A stretch of 35,434 nucleotides of DNA from a virus, in IMG/VR virus record IMGVR_UViG_3300009952_000004; one strand, written 5' to 3'. The position numbers and the translations under genes were made by a program. Below, piece by piece: positions 13,861-35,123 of the stretch (the first letter of the stretch is position 1; each line of letters opens with the position of its first letter). The notes beneath the pieces were generated by a model. It worked only from the letters and a program-made list of their open reading frames with translations, did not search any database and was not told the DNA's origin.

Positions 13861-14754
13861 TTAGACGTTTGCCGCATCTGTCAACTTAGCAAATGCGTTT
13901 GTCTTAGTGATCATAACTGCGATGTCCATTGTGCAACGGATAGCAATCATTTCTTGTTCAAATAGGTTTACTGGAGTTCCGTCTGCATTCTTAACAGTAG
14001 TGATTTGACCTTCTTCTGAAATCTTGTAATTGATGTTGTAAGGCACACCATAGATAAGGTGGTCGAAGTCACCGGCTAGCAAGTCACCTTTCTTGAATTG
14101 TTTAGATTTCATATCAACTACGACAGTTCCGTCAAGTTTGTTTGTGTCTTTGTCGTAAATGGTTTTCTTGTCGCCATCACGAGCATCACGAAGCGCTGAA
14201 CGGTTAGAAACACGAGATACAAAAGCGTTGATTTCGATGTCGTCGTCCAAAAGTTTATCTTCAAGTTTTAGGATGTTTTCGTAAGTTACTGGACCGCCGA
14301 TGACTTTACTTGCATCTTTAGCAGCCTTAGCAACTGAATTTGCAAACGGTGTTTCATGTCCCAAAAGTCCGGCTTCGTCAATCTTAGTGTAGAATGCTTC
14401 AACGATTTGTGGTTTCATGTCTTCAAAGAATTTTTCCCAAGTGTAGTTGAGCGCTTCACGAGAAGCAAGAAGAATGATACCGAGTTTATGCGCACGAAGC
14501 GTAACTGGTACGATTTCAGGCTTGTCAGTCTTGATTGTTTCTGTTTCATTTACCCAGTAAGCTGAAACGCCGTCAGTTTGAACGTGGACTGTTTTTTCTT
14601 GTTTACCGTCCATTTCGTGATATTTACCAAGTTGCATCACGATAGAGTTTTGAGCTACTTCTTTCATGATGATGTCTGTAAATTCTTTGTGAAGAGTTCC
14701 GTCTGGTTTCTGTGAAACAAGGACTTTTGAAGGGTTAAAAGTTTGTACTGTCAT
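13861..14754 (-). CDS. Major capsid protein (HK97 fold expected)
   Basis: 297 aa, directly after the scaffold gene, with an AAAGGAG RBS. Confidence 0.85.
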   Translation of the reverse strand: MTVQTFNPSKVLVSQKPDGTLHKEFTDIIMKEVAQNSIVMQLGKYHEMDGKQEKTVHVQTDGVSAYWVNETETIKTDKPEIVPVTLRAHKLGIILLASREALNYTWEKFFEDMKPQIVEAFYTKIDEAGLLGHETPFANSVAKAAKDASKVIGGPVTYENILKLEDKLLDDDIEINAFVSRVSNRSALRDARDGDKKTIYDKDTNKLDGTVVVDMKSKQFKKGDLLAGDFDHLIYGVPYNINYKISEEGQITTVKNADGTPVNLFEQEMIAIRCTMDIAVMITKTNAFAKLTDAANV

Positions 14755-14768
14755 TTATAAAATCTCCT

Positions 14769-15326
14769 TTAGATAATTCTTGAATTGCGGAAGATTTCTC
14801 CGCTTGATTGAGTTTTTGAACCACCAAACGCCGTACTTACTGCGGGCGGTTCGGATTGTGTGTATTCAGACTTGATTTCACTAATAATGCTTTCAAAGTC
14901 TGAAATAGCTTGAAGTGTGCCGTCTGCCGTGTCTTTTACAACAAAAGCAAGGACACGATCATTTACTGGCAACTTACGACTTGATAAGGTCTTAATCGCT
15001 TCATCTGTCAATTCTCGCTTAGTTTGTTCTTTCTCTAACCCAGCGATTTTATCAAGTAACGATTGCTTTTCTGCTTCAGCTTCTTTTCTGCGGTATTCTT
15101 CGAGTTCTTTCCCCGACAACTCTGTTTCCGCTTTGTACTTTTCTAAAGCCTTTGCAATCGCTTCTTGCGTTGATTGAGCGTGCTTCCTTTCTGCTTGCTC
15201 AAGTCGTCTTTGCATCTCTGCGACTGATACTGTCTTTTCAGGTTCTTGTTTTGGAGTGCTAGCTTGTTCCTCAACCGTAGTATCCTGAACTTGAGTATCA
15301 ATTGTCTGTGTTTGTTCTTCTGCCAT
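14769..15326 (-). CDS. Capsid scaffolding protein
   Basis: 185 aa, E/K/Q-rich predicted coiled coil, upstream of the capsid gene, with an AAAGGAG RBS. Confidence 0.8.
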   Translation of the reverse strand: MAEEQTQTIDTQVQDTTVEEQASTPKQEPEKTVSVAEMQRRLEQAERKHAQSTQEAIAKALEKYKAETELSGKELEEYRRKEAEAEKQSLLDKIAGLEKEQTKRELTDEAIKTLSSRKLPVNDRVLAFVVKDTADGTLQAISDFESIISEIKSEYTQSEPPAVSTAFGGSKTQSSGEIFRNSRII

Positions 15327-15410
15327 GTTTGGCTCCTTTCTCTACGCTTTTACGAGCAACCCCCTCGAACTCATGCACCTTTTTACGTCGTAAGCACGGT
15401 TTGGACAATT

Positions 15411-15437
15411 AAAAAACCGTATAGGTTATATACGGTT
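15411..15437 (-). terminator. Intrinsic terminator (second of a tandem pair) upstream of the scaffold gene
   Basis: On the minus strand, AACCGTATA-TAACC-TATACGGTT (perfect 9-bp stem) runs into TTTTTTAATT. Confidence 0.75.
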
Positions 15438-15450
15438 AAAAGTTTGAAAC

Positions 15451-15484
15451 ATAATAAAAAGCACTTAGATTTCTCTAGGTGCTT
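15451..15484 (-). terminator. Intrinsic terminator (first of a tandem pair) at the stop codon of the 71-aa ORF
   Basis: On the minus strand, AAGCACCTAG-AGAAAT-CTAAGTGCTT (10-bp stem with one mismatch) is followed by TTTATTAT. Confidence 0.65.
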
Positions 15485-15698
15485 AATATTTTCTGTCATC
15501 ATAATCAATCGGTTTTTCAAACGCTTCATTTTTCTTAATACACGAATCCACGACTGAATTATATTTTAAAAGAGCTTCCTCAGTCACCTCGAAAGGAACT
15601 ACCAGGTATACCGGAAAATCTTCTCCAAAATGGTTTCTGTATCGCTCTCCAATTTCTTTGAATTCTTTATAAATTTCTTCGTTTTTCCAAAAAAACAT
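15483..15698 (-). CDS. Small ORF downstream of the MuF-HEXXH gene; candidate immunity/inhibitor protein
   Basis: ATG at 15698 lies 6 nt after an AGGGGG RBS and 10 nt after the upstream stop, giving 71 aa (MFFWKNEEIYKEFKEIGERY...). The track start at 15719 has no RBS. The ORF is followed by two terminators. Confidence 0.65.
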   Translation of the reverse strand: MFFWKNEEIYKEFKEIGERYRNHFGEDFPVYLVVPFEVTEEALLKYNSVVDSCIKKNEAFEKPIDYDDRKY

Positions 15699-15708
15699 TC
15701 TATACCCC

Positions 15709-17694
15709 CTACCAAACAAGTGGCTTTTGGTTTTCTAATTTCAATTTTGAAATATCTTTGAATATTTCATTATATATCTTAACAGAATTCGGAAAAACTT
15801 TGTCATAAAATGCTTTTATTTCAGGCGTCATTTGTGCTTGAGTGTATTCTGCAAGAAATTCCATCCCACGATTGGTTTTATCTTTCCAGTAACTATCCTC
15901 ATGTCCGAAGACTTGACTTCCATATTCCGCTTTTCTGAATGAGCTCATCATATCTGATGCAAATGCGGTAACTTCTGCATTTGCTTCAGGATGAATTTCC
16001 GGGTTTAGTTTCTTTGCCAGTTCATATAATTCCAATTTGAAATCTCTTACTTTAGCTTGTTGAAGCTTGAAGAATGCTATCTTCTCTTCTGTTGAAGCCC
16101 CTCTTTTGAGCTTCATATCCCCGAAAATATAATTGTCCATATCTTTTTTTATGACATTATACAAATCATACTGACTACTAAAAGCTTTTCCCCCTAATTC
16201 TGGAACTCCGAAATAACTTGCGATATTGTCAACGCCGTGCGTTAACTCATGCAACACTATCGAATGTGCTTTCTGGTTAATTTTTTTGTTGTAAATAAAG
16301 TCACTTTTTGCGAGATGAACTTTTGTAGTGCTTACATGAGAGCTCTTTTCTCTCGTTCTAACAAAAGATAATTTATCTACTGAACCGTAGACAGAATTTA
16401 CAAAATCATCATTTGGGAAGAAGCGCAATTCTCTTAAAAGACCTTGTGCATTTTCTTCTCCGAAAACATCAACAAAATTCGTCGTTCTAAGTCTCTCTTC
16501 TATACGTGAAACTAAATCACGACGAGTTTTAGGAACTTTGCTTTCTCGTTCTTCTAAAAGTTTTCTCTCTGCTTCTGCCTGTAATTCTTTTAGTTTCGCT
16601 TTTAGCTTCTCTTGCTCTTCGACCCACTCATAATATTTCATAAGATCATCAAAGTCAAGATTGTTGATTTCTTCAGTTGTTAGTTTAGAGAAATCAATCT
16701 TAGTATTTTCTTCCGCTTGTTGAAGAATTATACTATCGTCTTTTTCATTCCAAGAATTAAACTCATCTAGCGTACTTCGTCCGTCTTTGTACTTCATTTC
16801 GATATGTCCATACGCTGAGCATCTACAATTAGGATGCATCGGAAACATATTTACGCCCTTTTCTACCTTGCCAATCGGTACTGCCGTATTGTCTAACGGC
16901 TTGCAAATATCACACGCTCCACTTTCAGCGACAAAAATCATATGAGTAAAGCCGTTATCTTTTAAGACTGCGTGGTCTGTATCTGCGTTTATCCTTGCTA
17001 TTTCGGTCTTTAGCAACCGTTTAGCGTTATACTCACTTGTGCCGTACTTATTAGCAAGCAATTTCATTTCTTTTTGGTAGCCGTTCATATCTGTATAGAT
17101 ACGATTTAAAGAAGCGAATACATCTCTTTGTAGTATTGCTTGTAAACCTGTTTTGCCCCAAACTCGACTAGAAAAGTTTTGTCCGTAGAAATCAGCGTTT
17201 AAAATCGCTTCTAAGCGCTTAGTCGCTCCACTTGAAGAAATACCCAAGATACCCGCTTGTCGCTTAAATTCGGCTAAATATTCGCTTCTACGAGCCTTAT
17301 CGAATACTTCATCAAGGTTACTTGTCAAACTGTTAATTTCAAGTCCTAATTCAGCTTTTAAAAGTTCTAAGCGACTGACTTTCATCTTCAAGTTGTAAAC
17401 TCGTAACCAAGAATTAGTCTTATGACTGAAATCTTTCTCTTTAACGGCTTTTCTTGCCTTATCTGTAAACTTGGTAACGTCAAATTCAGATGCCCGCTTC
17501 ATAGCTTCTTGCTTCGTTAAACCTTCACGCCCAGCATAACCAAGATAAAACTTGTCTATCTGCGCTTGTAGTCTATCATAGCTTTCTTGGTATAACTGCG
17601 TTATCAGTTTGTCACGGTCTAAATCACGCTTGATTAGTTCAGCTTGTGCCTTACGTTCTGCGTTATATAGACGGTTATCAGCTTTCTTGCTCAT
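15709..17694 (-). CDS. Head morphogenesis protein (SPP1 gp7 / Mu F family) fused to a C-terminal HEXXH metalloprotease-like domain (MuF polymorphic-toxin architecture)
   Basis: 661 aa, directly after the portal gene. Residues 1-300 are gp7/MuF-like, ending in FPMHPNCRCS. Residues ~355-400 are a K/E coiled coil. The C-terminal domain carries HELTH at 16237..16251 and TNRGMEFLAEY at 15844..15876. Confidence 0.8.
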   Translation of the reverse strand: MSKKADNRLYNAERKAQAELIKRDLDRDKLITQLYQESYDRLQAQIDKFYLGYAGREGLTKQEAMKRASEFDVTKFTDKARKAVKEKDFSHKTNSWLRVYNLKMKVSRLELLKAELGLEINSLTSNLDEVFDKARRSEYLAEFKRQAGILGISSSGATKRLEAILNADFYGQNFSSRVWGKTGLQAILQRDVFASLNRIYTDMNGYQKEMKLLANKYGTSEYNAKRLLKTEIARINADTDHAVLKDNGFTHMIFVAESGACDICKPLDNTAVPIGKVEKGVNMFPMHPNCRCSAYGHIEMKYKDGRSTLDEFNSWNEKDDSIILQQAEENTKIDFSKLTTEEINNLDFDDLMKYYEWVEEQEKLKAKLKELQAEAERKLLEERESKVPKTRRDLVSRIEERLRTTNFVDVFGEENAQGLLRELRFFPNDDFVNSVYGSVDKLSFVRTREKSSHVSTTKVHLAKSDFIYNKKINQKAHSIVLHELTHGVDNIASYFGVPELGGKAFSSQYDLYNVIKKDMDNYIFGDMKLKRGASTEEKIAFFKLQQAKVRDFKLELYELAKKLNPEIHPEANAEVTAFASDMMSSFRKAEYGSQVFGHEDSYWKDKTNRGMEFLAEYTQAQMTPEIKAFYDKVFPNSVKIYNEIFKDISKLKLENQKPLVW

Positions 17695-19147
17695 TCATGC
17701 CACCTACTAACTGCATGATCTCGTTGTCACTTGCTCCACTTTCTTTCAAAATGCGCTCTTGCTCTGTCTTGTAGTCTGTAAAGCTAGCATTGTTCATCAA
17801 CGTTTCTTGCGATACCACTCCGCCGGCTTCAATGTATGCCTTGATTTCATTCCATACATCTTGCGGAATGTTTGGATGGAAAGTGAAGGTCAGCTTACTA
17901 GCTTCAATCAACGGCTTATTAATAGCCTTGTGAATGTTACTAATCAATTCATAACGACGGCGCAAAGCCTTTGTAAAGAACGTTTCTTTGTCTTTTCTGA
18001 CTTGCTCTAGACCAATCATCTTATAAAGCAAGGCAATGCCCGATGAAGTAGCGTTAAATCTATCATCTTCAAGGTTAGGAATACGACTAAATCTATGAAT
18101 GTCGTTTGCTAGTCGATTCTTATATGCTTCCGTTCCTTGCACGTCATATTGCTTGTAGATATATCCAGCATCAGCGCTTGTTTGTTGTCCATTCGCACTT
18201 ATTCCGGTTTGAAGTAGCATCATGTTAGCGTCTTTCATTTTAGCGAATTTTTCATCACTTATGTTGATAGCTTCCAGGTCTCCCTTGATAACAAGCATTG
18301 CATCGTTCAAGTCTGACATATAGTTCGCTGTGTCTGACTGTCCAGCGTCGTAAGCATCAATCAACGGGATTTCACTTTCAAAGTCACCCATTCTATAGCG
18401 GTTATTCCACCATTCAACCACGGGTACATCTTTATATTCATGTTTGTTGACTGTATCGACTGCCAATTTTACTGAACCACTAGAAAATGGTTTGAAAGTT
18501 ATGACTTGGTCTTTAGTGTAAACCGTCATATTCACTTTATCCGCAAAGACTGGAAGATGAACGGCGCAAATGATATTTTGTTCGACTGTTAAATCACGAA
18601 TGACAAACATTTCAAGCGGGTTGATAGAAACAACTCTGTCCGCTCCGTCTTTATCTCGGAAGTGATATTCAAAAGCACGTCCATAGATTGAAGCATCAAG
18701 TGCTAAATCGCCATTCAAAGCGTTGATGTCATTGTCCCACTCGATTTCTTGAATTGTGTCAAGTTGCTCTTTGTTTGTGCCCTCTAAAATACCGACTGAA
18801 ACGGGGTTACCGATAACGTAGCTAGTTGCAAAACTAGAAATATATCCACCCCATTTATGACGTACCCGATAATCTGCTTTCTCGTTATCTAGTCGTCTAT
18901 GTCCGTTCAAAATACTGTAATTGTCGCCTTTGGCGTATGAAGATAGCACTTTCAAGCGTTTTTGCTGACTACTAAAGAAAGTGTCAATCATATCTCTAAA
19001 GGCTTTCTTACCGTTTGCCGTATCTAATAACGCATCACTTGAAGCATATCTGAATTGCTCGTTTGCGATTGTGCCAAAGTATAGACTGTCAAACCTCGTT
19101 TTCGTAGTCGTGTCTATACCGTGTTCAAATTCGTTTACTTTATCCAC
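17678..19147 (-). CDS. Portal protein (SPP1 gp6 type)
   Basis: 489 aa, GTG start 5 nt after a GGAGGT RBS, located directly after TerL. Confidence 0.9.
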   Translation of the reverse strand: MDKVNEFEHGIDTTTKTRFDSLYFGTIANEQFRYASSDALLDTANGKKAFRDMIDTFFSSQQKRLKVLSSYAKGDNYSILNGHRRLDNEKADYRVRHKWGGYISSFATSYVIGNPVSVGILEGTNKEQLDTIQEIEWDNDINALNGDLALDASIYGRAFEYHFRDKDGADRVVSINPLEMFVIRDLTVEQNIICAVHLPVFADKVNMTVYTKDQVITFKPFSSGSVKLAVDTVNKHEYKDVPVVEWWNNRYRMGDFESEIPLIDAYDAGQSDTANYMSDLNDAMLVIKGDLEAINISDEKFAKMKDANMMLLQTGISANGQQTSADAGYIYKQYDVQGTEAYKNRLANDIHRFSRIPNLEDDRFNATSSGIALLYKMIGLEQVRKDKETFFTKALRRRYELISNIHKAINKPLIEASKLTFTFHPNIPQDVWNEIKAYIEAGGVVSQETLMNNASFTDYKTEQERILKESGASDNEIMQLVGGMNEQES

Positions 19148-19150
19148 TTC

Positions 19151-20440
19151 TTACCTCCTAAACATCTTATTGATCTTACTGATAGCCTTGTCAACGTCCA
19201 CGTCTTTTCTTGTCTGATATATCCTATCTTGCAAGGCGTAGCGTATAGCATCTATGCAGTGATTATAGCTATCTACTGGCTCGTTGATATATTCGTTTGT
19301 CTTTTTGTCTTTCTTCCAAGTATAATTTTCAAGTTCTTCAATCAGCTTCACGCATCTTTCATCTACTATCCAATCATACTGTAACAAGTATTGAATACCT
19401 TGCATAACCGAGCCAGCGCCTTTTTGAACGTCTATCACTCGTGGAATACCAAGATTTCTTAATTCTTGATTAGATTTCTTTTCAGCGCTATCTGCTCGTA
19501 TCTGCTCTTTAGCATATCCAAGTGTCTTTATTGCTTCTGCTATCTTGTCATTCGTCAAGCCTTTTCTTACAAATTCCTCAACGACATATAAACGCTTGTT
19601 TTCGTCGTCTATCCTTACATGAAGAAGTGCTGACGGGTCATTGATAAAACCATAGTCAAGGCCAAAATAAGCCGGCAAATGCGCAAATTCTTCCTTGTTA
19701 AGCAATCGTTTCTCATACTTAGGGAAAATCAGCTTGTCAAGTGTCGCAAACTCGCCCAAAGCATAGATTTTGTAATATGCTTCATTTCTATTTGCTAGTT
19801 CTTCGATATTCTCGATTGTTACTTGATCTAAAAAGCGATTATCTTTGTATGAAGTATGATAAACAACTGTATTCTTCGGCTTCTTCACAAAAAATGCGTT
19901 ATACGTCCAATTCACTTTTGAAACAGGGTTAAACATCAAGAATATCTGCTTATTCAAATGCTTCTTATCCCGCAAACGCAAAGTCAACTGTGTGTAATCA
20001 TCAAGCGTAAACTCCGATGCTTCTTCCATGACGACATCTGACACGCCTTTGATTGACTTTATTTTTTCCGGATTGTCTAACCCTTTAAAAATGAACTGTG
20101 CACCGTTTGGCAGTTCGATACGATATGCTGAATTGTTGACCTTGCACTTATCTAGCAGCTGCCAACTATCCAGGCATTGTTTCACGTCTTCAAAGATTGA
20201 ATCGTGAACCGTTGCGCCTACCTTACGCAAGAATAAAACCTTGCGTGGATGTTTCCAGTCTTGACAAGACTTAAAGACAACCTTTTGTATCACGCCATGA
20301 CTTTTCCCACTCGAAGCACCGCCATAGTGAACCTCAGTAAAGGTTGAATAGTCGTATAACTTATCATAGATATGCTTATTAAATACACGGCTTGGATAGT
20401 CAATAATGATATTGATTTTAGGTTTATTCTTCGTTATCAT
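19151..20440 (-). CDS. terL: Terminase large subunit (PBSX family)
   Basis: Walker A motif YGGASSGKS. ATG at 20440 (MITKNKPKINIIIDY) is the preferred start; the track begins at an upstream TTG (20452) inside terS. Confidence 0.9.
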   Translation of the reverse strand: MITKNKPKINIIIDYPSRVFNKHIYDKLYDYSTFTEVHYGGASSGKSHGVIQKVVFKSCQDWKHPRKVLFLRKVGATVHDSIFEDVKQCLDSWQLLDKCKVNNSAYRIELPNGAQFIFKGLDNPEKIKSIKGVSDVVMEEASEFTLDDYTQLTLRLRDKKHLNKQIFLMFNPVSKVNWTYNAFFVKKPKNTVVYHTSYKDNRFLDQVTIENIEELANRNEAYYKIYALGEFATLDKLIFPKYEKRLLNKEEFAHLPAYFGLDYGFINDPSALLHVRIDDENKRLYVVEEFVRKGLTNDKIAEAIKTLGYAKEQIRADSAEKKSNQELRNLGIPRVIDVQKGAGSVMQGIQYLLQYDWIVDERCVKLIEELENYTWKKDKKTNEYINEPVDSYNHCIDAIRYALQDRIYQTRKDVDVDKAISKINKMFRR

Positions 20441-20870
20441 CCCAATCACCAACCTTTATGTCGATTGTTTTTTGAGTGATTTCTTGCCTATCAATAAACA
20501 AGCCGTAACGCTTACCGAGGTCAACCGCTGCACTCTTTCTTGTTGATACATTCGGTTTAGCATCCATGACTTTTTGATAGCCGTCGCCGTCAAGCACTAA
20601 TAAAGGCTCTGTGATTTCTCCACGCATGACTGCCGTCAAAAATTCAAGCACTTCTTGTTGGTCTGCGACACGTTCGGACTTTAGTTTTTCTAGTTGTTCG
20701 TCTATATAGGCTTTTACGTTAGCTTTTGCAAGCAATCGACTTCCATTTGTCCTTGCGACATCATCGTTCTTAATATTCGGATAAGCCTTTTTATATGCCC
20801 TTGTAGCGTTTAATTCGATGATGTACTCATCGGCAAAAAGCTTTTGTTTTTCGGTCATCCCATTTTCCAT
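20424..20870 (-). CDS. terS: Terminase small subunit (Terminase_2 type)
   Basis: MENGMTEKQKLFADEYIIELNATRAYKKAY is typical of the family. The start is ATG 20870 or 20858, just after AAAGAGGTG. The track extension up to 21041 crosses structured non-coding RNA-like sequence and is rejected. Confidence 0.85.
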   Translation of the reverse strand: MENGMTEKQKLFADEYIIELNATRAYKKAYPNIKNDDVARTNGSRLLAKANVKAYIDEQLEKLKSERVADQQEVLEFLTAVMRGEITEPLLVLDGDGYQKVMDAKPNVSTRKSAAVDLGKRYGLFIDRQEITQKTIDIKVGDWDDNEE

Positions 20871-32958: not shown

Positions 32959-33555
32959 ATGGAACAGGAACGTAAAGTTTTAGGTATTTTGGCTATTATT
33001 TTTGGGGGTATTGCCTTAATTGGCTCTTGGATGCCTATCATCAATAATTTATCTTTCATTATCGCTATTTTAGCGCTTATTTTAGGGGTAATTGGTCTAT
33101 TCGTTAATAAAAAAAGACCAAAAACTTTAGCTATTATTGGTACAGTTATAGCGGTAGTATCAATGGCAATTGTGCTTGGAACTCAAGCTATGTATGCTAA
33201 ATCACTTGATAACCTTAGTAAAGATATTGAAAAAACAACAATTTCAACAAGTTCATCAAATGAAACTTCAAAGAAAGAAGAAAAAACTAAGTTCAACTGG
33301 ACAAAAGAACAATTTGACGCTCTTAAACAAGGTGACATTATCAACAATGGCGCTGGCGGAACTAACTACGATGATGTCATTCGTGAACACGGTGAACCAA
33401 GCGATACTAACACAACCACAGTTAATGATCACGAAAACAAAACAATCTCTTATACTTCATTTGATAAAGGATTGAAGAGTGTTGTTTTATCATTCGCAAA
33501 ACAAGAGGATGGCTCTTTCCTACTCATCTCTAAAGTTGCAACAGGTCTTGAATAA
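32959..33555 (+). CDS. Three-TM surface protein of the lysogeny module (candidate superinfection-exclusion factor)
   Basis: 198 aa. It has three N-terminal hydrophobic helices, an S/T/K-rich linker, and a ~90-aa C-terminal extracellular-looking domain (FNWTKEQFDALKQGD...). AGGAGGG RBS. Confidence 0.7.
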   Translation: MEQERKVLGILAIIFGGIALIGSWMPIINNLSFIIAILALILGVIGLFVNKKRPKTLAIIGTVIAVVSMAIVLGTQAMYAKSLDNLSKDIEKTTISTSSSNETSKKEEKTKFNWTKEQFDALKQGDIINNGAGGTNYDDVIREHGEPSDTNTTTVNDHENKTISYTSFDKGLKSVVLSFAKQEDGSFLLISKVATGLE

Positions 33556-33575
33556 ATTTAATTCTTACGCTTTTT

Positions 33576-33625
33576 AAAATAAAAAAATCCCACGCTCTGA
33601 AAGTTTGGCGACTGCGAGCGTGAGA
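33576..33625 (-). terminator. Minus-oriented intrinsic terminator between the surface-protein gene and int
   Basis: On the minus strand, TCTCACGCTC...GAGCGTGGGA forms a 10-bp stem including one GU pair, with an 18-nt loop, followed by TTTTTTTATTTT. There is no U-run in the plus orientation. Confidence 0.55.
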
Positions 33626-33701
33626 TTATCTAGTATAAAAAACAACCATTAAAAAGGGCGTTTTCTTATACTCATTTTATCAAAAAGGGGGTGTAAAATC
33701 A

Positions 33702-35123
33702 ATGAAAAATACAAACAAAGTAGCTATATATGCTCGTGTTTCAACCGCAATACAAGCTGAAGAAGGATATTCGATAGACGAGCAGAAAGACAAGCTAGAA
33801 GCATACTGCAAAATTAAAGACTGGAAGATATACGATTTTTACATTGACGGCGGTTTTTCAGGCTCAAACACAAAACGCCCCGAACTTGAGCGCTTGATAG
33901 ATGATGCGAAAAGGAAAAGATTTGATATTGTGTTAGTTTACAAGTTAGATCGCTTGAGTCGTAGCCAAAAAGACACGCTATTTTTAATCGAAGACGTATT
34001 CTTAAAAAATGGCGTTGCTTTTATCAGCTTACAAGAAAATTTTGATACATCTACGCCTTTTGGTAAGGCTTCAATCGGTATGCTCTCAGTATTCGCTCAA
34101 CTTGAGCGTGAGCAGATAAAAGAAAGAATGATTTTAGGTAAAGAAGGACGAGCCAAAAAGGGTAAAACAATGTCATGGACGACTATTCCTTTTGGCTATG
34201 ACTATTCAAAAGAAACGGGTATTTTATCAGTCAATCCAACTCAAGCGCTTATTGTAAATCGTATCTATGAGGAATATCTAAACGGAAAATCAGTAGTTAA
34301 AATTATTAGAGATTTAAACAAAGAAGGACATATCGGACGAAAAAGACCGTGGGGAGAAACGATCACAAAGTATTTACTCAAAAATGAAACATATCTTGGT
34401 GTTGTGAAGTACCGAGGGCAAAAGTACGAGGGTCAGCATGAACCGATTATCTCTCAAGAATTATTTGACCTTGTGCAATTAGAACTCAAGAAAAGGCAAA
34501 TAGATGCCTTGAATAAATACAACAATCCAAGACCATTTCGGGCAAAATATATGCTTTCCGGATTGCTGAAATGTGGGTATTGTGGTGCATCATTGAGAAT
34601 ACACGTTACGCCAAAAGATAAAAACGGGCGCTCGTATCATAAATATCAATGTGCAAACCGCTTCAAGAAAGATACAAAATGTAAATCCGGCTGGTATTCT
34701 CGTGAAGAATTAGAAAACAACGTTTTGAAGCAGTTATCAAGAATTAAGTTAGAACCACAATATCGAAAAGAAACACTTGCAAAAAATGATGAAACAATGA
34801 AAGTCGAAGAAATAAAAGAACAACTGAAAAGACTGAATAACAGACTTGATAAGCTGACTGAATTATACTTAGACGAGATCATAACACGAAAAGAACTCAA
34901 TGCTAAAAACGAAAAACTAAAAACTGAAAAAGCGTTTTTAAAAGAACAACTAGAAAGCAAGAAAAAGAATACAATCAACTTGCGACAACGTAAACTTGCT
35001 AGACTTTTAAAAGATTTTAAACCCGAAAAATTAAGTTATGAAGATGCTTCAAAAATTGTAAAATCAGTCATAAATGAAATTGTTGTCACGAAAGAAGAAA
35101 TGATGATAACGCTAGACTTTTAA
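33702..35123 (+). CDS. int: Large serine recombinase (integrase)
   Basis: 473 aa. It has a resolvase-type N-terminus (VAIYARVSTAIQ...VYKLDRLSRS), a recombinase domain, a Cys-rich zinc ribbon (CGYCGASL...YQCANRFKKDTKC) and a C-terminal coiled coil. Confidence 0.9.
   Translation: MKNTNKVAIYARVSTAIQAEEGYSIDEQKDKLEAYCKIKDWKIYDFYIDGGFSGSNTKRPELERLIDDAKRKRFDIVLVYKLDRLSRSQKDTLFLIEDVFLKNGVAFISLQENFDTSTPFGKASIGMLSVFAQLEREQIKERMILGKEGRAKKGKTMSWTTIPFGYDYSKETGILSVNPTQALIVNRIYEEYLNGKSVVKIIRDLNKEGHIGRKRPWGETITKYLLKNETYLGVVKYRGQKYEGQHEPIISQELFDLVQLELKKRQIDALNKYNNPRPFRAKYMLSGLLKCGYCGASLRIHVTPKDKNGRSYHKYQCANRFKKDTKCKSGWYSREELENNVLKQLSRIKLEPQYRKETLAKNDETMKVEEIKEQLKRLNNRLDKLTELYLDEIITRKELNAKNEKLKTEKAFLKEQLESKKKNTINLRQRKLARLLKDFKPEKLSYEDASKIVKSVINEIVVTKEEMMITLDF

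Follow-up and report, generated by a model that had tools for sequence, protein, structure and literature searches.

The viral DNA record IMGVR_UViG_3300009952_000004, a stretch of 35,434 nucleotides (nt) referred to below as the window, comes from a temperate streptococcal siphophage most closely related to Javan prophages of the mitis and suis groups. Directly after its portal gene lies an open reading frame (ORF) of 661 amino acids (aa; 15709..17694, minus strand, as for all features below unless noted), which fuses a MuF/gp7 head-protein domain to a C-terminal tip predicted to be a zinc metallopeptidase, and this ORF is followed by a 71-codon partner gene (15483..15698). We document here the architecture of the fusion, the conservation of the catalytic residues of its tip, the exchange of the tip as a module and its cognate pairing with the small ORF. 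Our preferred reading, to which we give a probability of roughly 0.6, is that the two genes form one MuF polymorphic-toxin cassette, encoding a MuF-anchored peptidase effector that would be packaged in the capsid and delivered at infection and, beside it, a cognate partner that would neutralise the effector. A preliminary description of this DNA had proposed the same MuF polymorphic-toxin architecture, and the domain layout, the reshuffling of tips and N-terminal domains, the small ORF and the temperate nature of the phage all support it; the features that it listed (the 661-aa ORF, the HELTH and TNRGMEFLAEY motifs, the small ORF with its ribosome-binding site, and two hairpins) were each recovered at the positions given here.

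Domain architecture and catalytic motifs

The N-terminal part of the fusion (aa 1-331; 16702..17694) is a MuF/SPP1-gp7 head-protein domain, which acts as the anchor and lies outside the exchangeable cassette. TIGR01641 (phageSPP1_gp7) scores 47.6 bits at aa 206-297, above its curated cut-off of 39.65, and Pfam Phage_Mu_F (PF04233) matches at E = 9e-6 with 26.8 bits, just under its gathering score of 29.6. The TIGR01641 match and the position of the gene directly after an SPP1-type portal gene (17678..19147; PF05133, E = 2e-82) confirm that this is the SPP1-gp7/Mu-F head gene. The family phrog_115, labelled "minor head protein," matches across all 661 residues (E = 8e-122), a first sign that the fusion of MuF domain and tip is a recurrent architecture. 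Between the two domains lies the cassette linker (aa 332-399; 16498..16701), which begins at KIDFSKLT and includes a K/E-rich helix; the lysine- and glutamate-rich stretch reported earlier for aa ~355-400 is indeed there, with 54% charged residues over aa 355-400.

The tip (aa 400-661, 262 aa; 15712..16497) is predicted to be a gluzincin metallopeptidase domain with a helical insertion of ~110 aa. Its HELTH sequence (aa 482-486, comprising H482, E483 and H486; 16237..16251) is an HExxH zinc-binding/catalytic motif, extended to HExxHxxD by D489, and TNRGMEFLAEY (aa 607-617; 15844..15876) is a helix in which the invariant E612 (codon 15859..15861) is the candidate third zinc ligand. When aa 400-661 were searched exhaustively with HMMER, 25 cluster representatives were returned at E < 1e-3; the matches are C-terminal in proteins of 524-707 aa, except for seven shorter sequences (88-256 aa). 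The HExxH motif is kept in 23/23 distant homologues that cover the motif site, so that the protease-like signature first noticed in the window turns out to be conserved among homologues, and the downstream Glu helix is invariant as well. In alignment A1, which comprises 20 tip sequences at 22-30% identity, 12 columns are invariant (H482, E483, H486, D489, S580, D581, H598, Y602, W603, E612, A615 and P635), and within the Glu helix E612, F613 and A615 are invariant or nearly invariant. The H, E, H and D of HExxHxxD are invariant both in A1 and in profile A8, which is independent of A1 and leaves out the window's subfamily.

The AlphaFold2 model of the tip built on A1 is confident (predicted local distance difference test, 85.6; predicted template-modelling score, 0.86) and has zincin core topology. 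N-terminal helices are followed by a three-stranded sheet, the HExxH helix, three inserted helices (~110 residues), the E612 helix and two more helices, and the sheet, HExxH helix and Glu helix match the zincin core described in PMC5512222. The C-terminus thus models as a zincin-type core, and not as a capsid- or portal-binding fold.

Exchange of linker, tip and small ORF as one cassette

Comparison with Javan266 reveals sharp junctions on both sides of the cassette. Nucleotide identity is 30-50% above 16703, 80-98% over 16702 to 15456 and 37% below 15456; it leaps from 32% to 88% at nt 16702, and similarity stops at 15456. At the protein level, the MuF part is ~30% identical to that of Javan266 and the rest of the MuF fusion 93%. 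Three independent recombinants that differ in their N-terminal domains (Javan266, L002 and L006) all have the 5' junction at aa 329-332, and in L006 the window-type tip sits on a PF06152 N-domain. The converse exchange is seen between Javan266 and pneumococcal phage IPP10, whose MuF domains are ~80% identical up to the junction and are then followed by unrelated tips. The suggestion that the extension and small ORF are a swapped-in module is thus upheld from both directions, with the same tip on N-domains only ~30% identical and unrelated tips on N-domains ~80% identical. The AT bias offered with that suggestion is real but modest: the GC (guanine + cytosine) fraction is 0.319 in the small ORF and 0.346 in the tip, against 0.389 in the MuF part, with 0.403 in the portal gene and 0.386 in the whole window. 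Across 25 non-redundant pairs, tip and partner divergence are correlated (Spearman 0.55), and divergence of the MuF domain is uncorrelated with that of tip or partner (Spearman 0.00 and -0.04). Linker, tip and small ORF travel together as a single block whose inheritance is separate from that of the MuF domain.

The 3' boundary of the tip cassette coincides with a terminator-like hairpin, hairpin 1 (AAGCACCTAGAGAAATCTAAGTGCTTTT; 15457..15484, then U5), with a folding energy of -13.6 kcal/mol (z = -5.5). Its 28 nt are identical in the window, Javan266, IPP10 and Javan326 despite the differing upstream genes, and an exact match to it is present in at least 119 IMG/VR viral contigs (loci L128-L246). 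Our survey of hairpin 1, in which all counts are among the matches listed, comprised 123 copies, of which 92 have a long upstream ORF in the available DNA; in 84/92 of these copies the upstream ORF is MuF-like, with its 3' end 103-618 nt ahead of the hairpin. The tips that precede it fall into at least 14 unrelated clusters. Besides the window type they include an ADP-ribosyltransferase (PF03496, E = 1.4e-16), a BECR nuclease (PBECR3, E = 6e-7), the IPP10 type and a second HExxH domain. Each tip cluster at hairpin 1 loci has its own small-ORF family, in strict pairing; the window-type tip, T07, is paired with the family of the 71-aa protein, S09, in 5/5 cases. From these sequence comparisons, hairpin 1 could possibly serve as a signpost of both recombination and termination for the swapping of cassettes. 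No description of a shared 28-nt hairpin boundary was found in the MuF-toxin literature searched.

Two further observations concern the hairpin 1 loci. The second HExxH tip (IIHELTHKKHW, with weak WLM and M48 matches), which is unrelated to that of the window, is found in Javan326 (L012:4600-6368) and at 14 more loci; it is the commonest tip before hairpin 1 (15/84) and always comes with a small ORF of ~59-61 aa. In two contigs, L151 (802-829 and 2340-2367) and L178 (3280-3307 and 4818-4845), two copies of hairpin 1 stand ~1.5 kb apart and may mark tandem or orphan cassettes.

This variety of tips bears on the idea that the peptidase has a morphogenetic or self-processing role, trimming scaffold, capsid or MuF protein during head maturation or after ejection, with the small ORF as its regulator. 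Between its portal and major capsid genes the window lacks a dedicated prohead protease gene, zincins of virion-delivered polyvalent proteins have been proposed as processing enzymes (PMC5512222), and phrog_595, labelled "head maturation protease," matches the N-terminal part of the window protein. That match (aa 11-456), however, covers mainly the MuF part and linker and ends before the catalytic motifs, and the protein contains no further effector domain that would need release. IPP10, with its MuF domain ~80% identical to that of Javan266, has an unrelated, non-protease tip at the same junction, and the succession of 14 unrelated tip families before the same hairpin implies that the tip is dispensable for assembly in this lineage. 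We consider a processing role quite improbable.

A small acidic partner linked to the tip

The 71-codon ORF encodes an acidic protein of family phrog_30662, a candidate inhibitor or immunity protein. The ATG start codon comes 10 nt past the TAG stop of the MuF gene, and an AGGGGG ribosome-binding site (15705..15710), read from the sequence, overlaps that stop. Gene callers sometimes pick an alternative upstream TTG start, giving 78 aa; the family alignment points to MF... as the true start. Direct searches with the 71-aa protein found close relatives only, 77-93% identical (that of Javan266 is 93% identical), and all those examined lie directly 3' of a long MuF-type gene, some of which have a PF06152 rather than a PF04233 N-domain.

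More distant members were reached through the tip. A set of 110 IMG/VR locus records, representing 97 distinct contigs, was assembled around distant tips; a recognisable tip gene is present in 103 of the records, and the complete genes encode 531-692 aa. A downstream ORF follows in 102/103 of these tip loci, and 98 of the downstream ORFs encode 71-79 aa. Most start 0-4 nt past the stop and the rest overlap it, which suggests, as far as gene spacing can tell, that translation of the small ORF is coupled to that of the MuF-tip gene. The 51 distinct downstream ORFs of the distant loci align end to end, and a hidden Markov model built from them, with the window subfamily excluded, matches the window's 71-aa protein along its entire length (53.5 bits). 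Likewise, phrog_30662 matches the relatives at E = 5e-55 and the window protein itself at E = 0.005. The small ORF, suspected from a single genome, is therefore linked to the tip in relatives and homologous across the family; with HExxH kept in 23/23 homologues as well, chance does not account for these features.

The family phrog_30662 has no functional annotation, and the partner proteins have no Pfam family and no NCBIfam or PADLOC match; the partner model has no significant fold match in a Foldseek search of the PDB. The isoelectric point is 4.8 for the partner and 8.0 for the tip. The partner model consists of two helices and a low-confidence C-terminal tail, in which P63, Y66, R69 and Y71 are conserved.

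Some outlying loci differ from this layout. At L008 (2901-5352) and L010 (2718-4839), a gene of its own (383 or 208 aa) encodes the peptidase domain; in L008 this gene directly follows a short Phage_min_cap2 gene, and the small ORF after the peptidase gene encodes 64-70 aa at these loci. The small ORFs at the most distant or split loci (L008, L009 and L010) have no match to the phrog_30662 profile, and those of L008 and L009 make up a family of their own (E = 8e-6).

Proposed mechanism and competing readings

Packaging and ejection in the model that we propose are taken from work on SPP1 gp7 and 80alpha gp44 (PMC10083569, PMC12323379), and we infer these steps, together with proteolysis and inhibition, as follows. 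By analogy, the MuF domain would anchor a small number of protein copies to the portal within the capsid, and the protein would exit with the DNA at infection, so that the zinc peptidase tip arrives inside the new host cell, where it would cleave one or a few target proteins. The 71-aa acidic protein would be made in step with the tip through coupled translation and, to judge from its position, coupling and cognate pairing, would bind the tip and, as an immunity protein or inhibitor, keep it from acting in the producing cell. The invariant C-terminal tail of the partner, P-x-D/G-Y-x-x-R-x-Y, is a candidate for the segment that fills the peptidase cleft.

A more specific version of this mechanism can be stated, which we hold only tentatively and regard as unlikely to be right in all its parts. 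The tip would represent a new family of virion-injected zinc endopeptidases that cut a specific protein of the host or of a resident prophage (for example, a defence component or a repressor) at DNA entry; the 71-aa protein would be a new small protease inhibitor, with its tail in the active-site cleft, that is displaced or left behind at packaging; and the 28-nt hairpin would be the signpost for swapping such effector-inhibitor cassettes.

Several results weigh against the reading of a neutralised, virion-delivered peptidase toxin, and the first group concerns the enzyme. Anthrax lethal factor is a match for profile A1 at E = 3.6e-5, with HExxHxxD placed on HEFGHAVDD and the Glu helix on NEAEFFAEAF, but the independent profile A8 gets no further than PPEP-1, likewise of M34, at E = 0.45, although the same two motifs align (with the Glu helix on PAEFFAESF). 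Foldseek comparison of the tip model with the PDB gave nothing better than E = 0.5, and both lethal factor and PPEP-1 are absent from the 50 best PDB matches listed; judging from the model, the inserted helices may mask the small zincin core in such a search. In the Foldseek viral library, the top match is a 644-aa "minor capsid protein" (E = 3.7e-3) and the second a phage protein named "Lethal factor (Fragment)" (E = 0.042), with weak metallopeptidase matches. No Pfam, NCBIfam or PADLOC family scores above threshold for the tip. The Pfam peptidase families M90, M91 and ATLF match a minority of tip-family members, all below threshold: ATLF matches 2/20 at E = 2e-3, below its gathering score, and does not match the window protein, and Peptidase M90 (MtfA; PF06167) matches 5/20 at E = 3e-4 or weaker, with best scores of 15.5-17.2 bits against a cut-off of 26.2 and over the HExxH region only.

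The likeness to lethal-factor-type (ATLF-like) proteases put forward in the preliminary description thus survives in part: both motifs align and A1 supports it, while A8 and the PDB fold search do not. A firm "LF-type" label was given up in favour of "M34-like, marginal" once A8 had reached only E = 0.45. The link to lethal factor is graded as marginal because its outcome varies with the alignment used and because Foldseek returned no solved structure; from its sequence, the tip is best described as a marginally M34-like gluzincin peptidase domain, short of established membership in M34.

The missing fold match to a solved peptidase and the subthreshold Pfam matches would also suit a catalytically dead C-terminal domain, that is, a structural extension such as a DNA-end or portal-binding module, with the small ORF as an unrelated moron. 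Such a domain is hard to reconcile with the invariance, at 22-30% identity, of four metal-binding or catalytic candidates (H482, E483, H486 and E612) and eight further residues, which makes a degenerate enzyme unlikely, or with a small ORF that is linked in 102/103 loci and diverges together with the tip. We regard a dead domain as very improbable indeed.

The second group of contrary results concerns the toxin and its immunity. The partner gene is part of a late operon and lacks any conserved promoter to itself, which means that the partner probably cannot protect a lysogen, and a cell in the late lytic phase has no obvious need of immunity. A sequence scan found no conserved promoter after the hairpins or before the small ORF, and the number of promoter-like sites in the region is what chance predicts (17 observed, 19.4 expected); scaffold and capsid genes would consequently be expressed by read-through or from a promoter type outside the scan. 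The idea that the partner is a moron expressed in the prophage from an internal promoter, which would have accounted for the terminators, was rejected as unsupported, since a sigma-70-like site 960 nt upstream of the small ORF is present only in the window and Javan266, is absent in L002 and L006, and belongs to a class of sites occurring at chance level. In addition, L043 compared with L017 and L036 has a tip only 43-44% identical, with a MuF domain 86-90% and a partner 91% identical. By sequence, the L043 lineage appears to have swapped its tip for a divergent homologue and left the partner unchanged, which indicates that the partner is not strictly specific to a tip variant. Such tolerance fits binding of the partner to a conserved site of the tip, but equally a role unrelated to the tip surface.

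A third point is that the tip was not found in other polymorphic-toxin delivery families, save for one distant homologue beside an FtsK/SpoIIIE gene; nearly all tip homologues found are C-terminal on MuF-type proteins or encoded directly after a MuF gene. The distant homologue, P0056 (profile E = 4e-13; L247:4001-5181, and L248), comes right after a 943-aa FtsK/SpoIIIE ATPase, with a resolvase nearby, outside any phage head module. The P0056 gene is followed by an overlapping 65-aa ORF, and pairs of peptidase and small ORF may also exist in conjugative or other mobile elements.

The promoter and L043 results lend themselves to a different account, in which the tip is a virion-delivered takeover or counter-defence peptidase, aimed at a defence protein, a prophage repressor or another early obstacle, rather than a growth-inhibiting toxin, and the small protein serves as a chaperone for folding or packaging, or as a timer that is released. 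A partner without its own promoter would give no protection to a lysogen, and it tolerates a tip just 44% identical. Injected head proteins with enzymatic domains are established (T4 Alt, P1 Dar and MuF fusions; PMC5512222), and Jamet et al. (PMC5576092) suggest that MuF tips of mild toxicity, peptidases among them, serve to bias the choice between lysis and lysogeny or to withstand the defences of the cell. On the other hand, the alternative tips at this slot include classical toxins with one-to-one cognate small ORFs, which is the signature of toxin-immunity pairs; an acidic partner, a mildly basic tip and seemingly coupled translation are as in inhibitor pairs; and neither protein matches a PADLOC or anti-defence family. 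Overall, this takeover role seems to us doubtful, and we retain the MuF polymorphic-toxin cassette as our preferred reading.

Genomic context, the second hairpin and distribution

The head module of the window runs in the order large terminase (19151..20452), portal, MuF fusion, small ORF, DUF4355 scaffold protein (14769..15326) and HK97-type major capsid protein (13861..14754). At the other end of the window, a large serine recombinase with Resolvase, Recombinase and zinc-ribbon domains is encoded on the plus strand (33702..35123), which is why we take the phage to be temperate. The recombinase and a CD20-like membrane protein together occupy 32959..35123 (plus strand), opposite in orientation to the head genes, and this end of the window is the lysogeny end of the prophage.

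A second terminator-like hairpin, hairpin 2 (15415..15437, then U6; -9.3 kcal/mol, z = -3.3), stands at the 5' end of the scaffold-capsid mosaic block. It is kept before the Javan573 scaffold gene (Javan573 is an S. suis phage), with the stem preserved through base changes, and the similarity to Javan573 starts there. Both hairpins with their U-tracts are present, as had been described, but they do not form one unit insulating the gene pair: hairpin 1 is the end of the cassette and hairpin 2 belongs to the scaffold-capsid block, so that, on this sequence evidence, the apparent tandem terminators are two block boundaries side by side. Hairpin 2 and a leader of ~90 nt at 15327..15414 (together window 15327..15437; L250:5041-5160) are conserved in Javan573, including GCATGAGTTCG.GG.GGTTGC. 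Within this leader there might be a late promoter, or else a site of processing, that serves the strongly expressed scaffold and capsid genes. A Javan573 annotation reading "transcriptional terminator" was considered as a hairpin and discarded, being a mis-named coding sequence instead; this is Javan573_0040 (L250:3254-3565), a 103-aa coding sequence after the major capsid gene that is probably a mis-named head protein.

The module is widespread in Lactobacillales phages, and both of its parts already belong to PHROG families (phrog_115 and phrog_30662) without functional annotation. The deposited phages that carry it have the protein annotated simply as "minor capsid protein." Bacterial genomes with the module include a Tetragenococcus metagenome-assembled genome (MAG), Streptococcus equinus, Pediococcus, Lactiplantibacillus and an unclassified Bacillota MAG. 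For the phages with a name, the host is Streptococcus or Enterococcus, and the named hosts are Lactobacillales with the exception of two records labelled Stenotrophomonas. In these two (OM735687.1 and OM735689.1, Stenotrophomonas phages BUCT702 and BUCT704), the tip is 34-40% identical, and the label may reflect a mis-assigned host or a contaminant. No characterisation of the tip family or of the partner was found in the literature searched. The earlier proposal of an undescribed effector-inhibitor system accordingly holds for the tip-partner pair, which is uncharacterised in the literature found, but not for the module as such, which is not rare and has both parts in PHROG.

Phages of human-associated Firmicutes widely encode MuF toxins. 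A peptidase-type pair is now defined by a catalytic residue (E483), a domain boundary (aa 331/332), a partner of 71-79 aa and more than 50 natural variants, and it allows the delivery of a protease through the phage head, and its substrates, to be tested. The 28-nt hairpin, which accompanies at least 14 tip families, offers a simple handle for cataloguing the effectors of oral and pneumococcal streptococcal phages, and it suggests how cassettes are swapped between phages.

Comparison with known systems

The framework for MuF polymorphic toxins of temperate phages was laid out by Jamet et al. in 2017 (PMC5576092) and Zhang et al. in 2012 (PMC3482391), and the kind of system described here is already known from these papers. 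Like those toxins, the window protein has an N-terminal MuF/gp7 domain encoded beside the portal gene, a variable enzymatic C-terminal tip and a small ORF directly 3', it belongs to a temperate Firmicutes phage, and its tip and small ORF are swapped as a unit. The small ORF is also shorter than 150 aa and specific to the tip family, as in MuF toxin systems, in 102/103 loci and with strict pairing at hairpin 1. Jamet et al. report metallopeptidase domains on 20% of MuF toxins (PMC5576092), and by Pfam thresholds the window tip would count in their survey as an extension without a known domain. No experimental study of any MuF metallopeptidase tip was found in the literature searched.

One characterised MuF example is Apk2-IapK-Aph1 (PMC10083569, PMC12226406). 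The window cassette shares its slot and its 28-nt hairpin end with the cassette of IPP10, in which the order of MuF gene, 69-aa ORF and HD hydrolase is the published apk2-iapK-aph1 order; from gene order, we infer that the IPP10 tip is equivalent to Apk2. Unlike the Apk2 system, the window has a Pfam-less gluzincin as its tip and a phrog_30662 partner unrelated to IapK or Aph1. Bxa is a characterised MuF-toxin ADP-ribosyltransferase, and to our knowledge nucleotide-synthetase and ADP-ribosyltransferase tips are the only MuF tips studied so far. SPP1 gp7 and 80alpha gp44 share the N-terminal domain family and the gene position of the window protein, but they lack both an enzymatic extension at the C-terminus and a cognate small ORF.

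Among peptidases, the comparison is with M34 (lethal factor and PPEP-1/Zmp1). In lethal factor and PPEP-1, the third zinc ligand is the first Glu of EFFAE, which lies ~45 residues after HExxH, with a catalytic Tyr 7 residues before it. The tip resembles these enzymes in its HExxHxxD, which aligns on HEFGHAVDD, in a collinear C-terminal helix of the EFFAE type and in a Tyr before that helix. It differs from them in the distance from H486 to E612, which is 126 residues rather than ~45 owing to the inserted helical subdomain, and in Y602, which sits 10 residues before E612 rather than 7.

A last parallel is with the zincin-like domains in polyvalent proteins of phages and conjugative elements, which Iyer et al. 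in 2017 (PMC5512222) tied to lethal factor by profile-profile search only. These domains and the window tip have the same core of sheet, HExxH helix and Glu helix, and both would enter with the invading DNA, in the case of the window by analogy. The polyvalent-protein zincins stand within giant multi-effector proteins and are proposed to be processors, whereas the predicted peptidase of the window is the sole effector domain of its protein and has a dedicated small partner.

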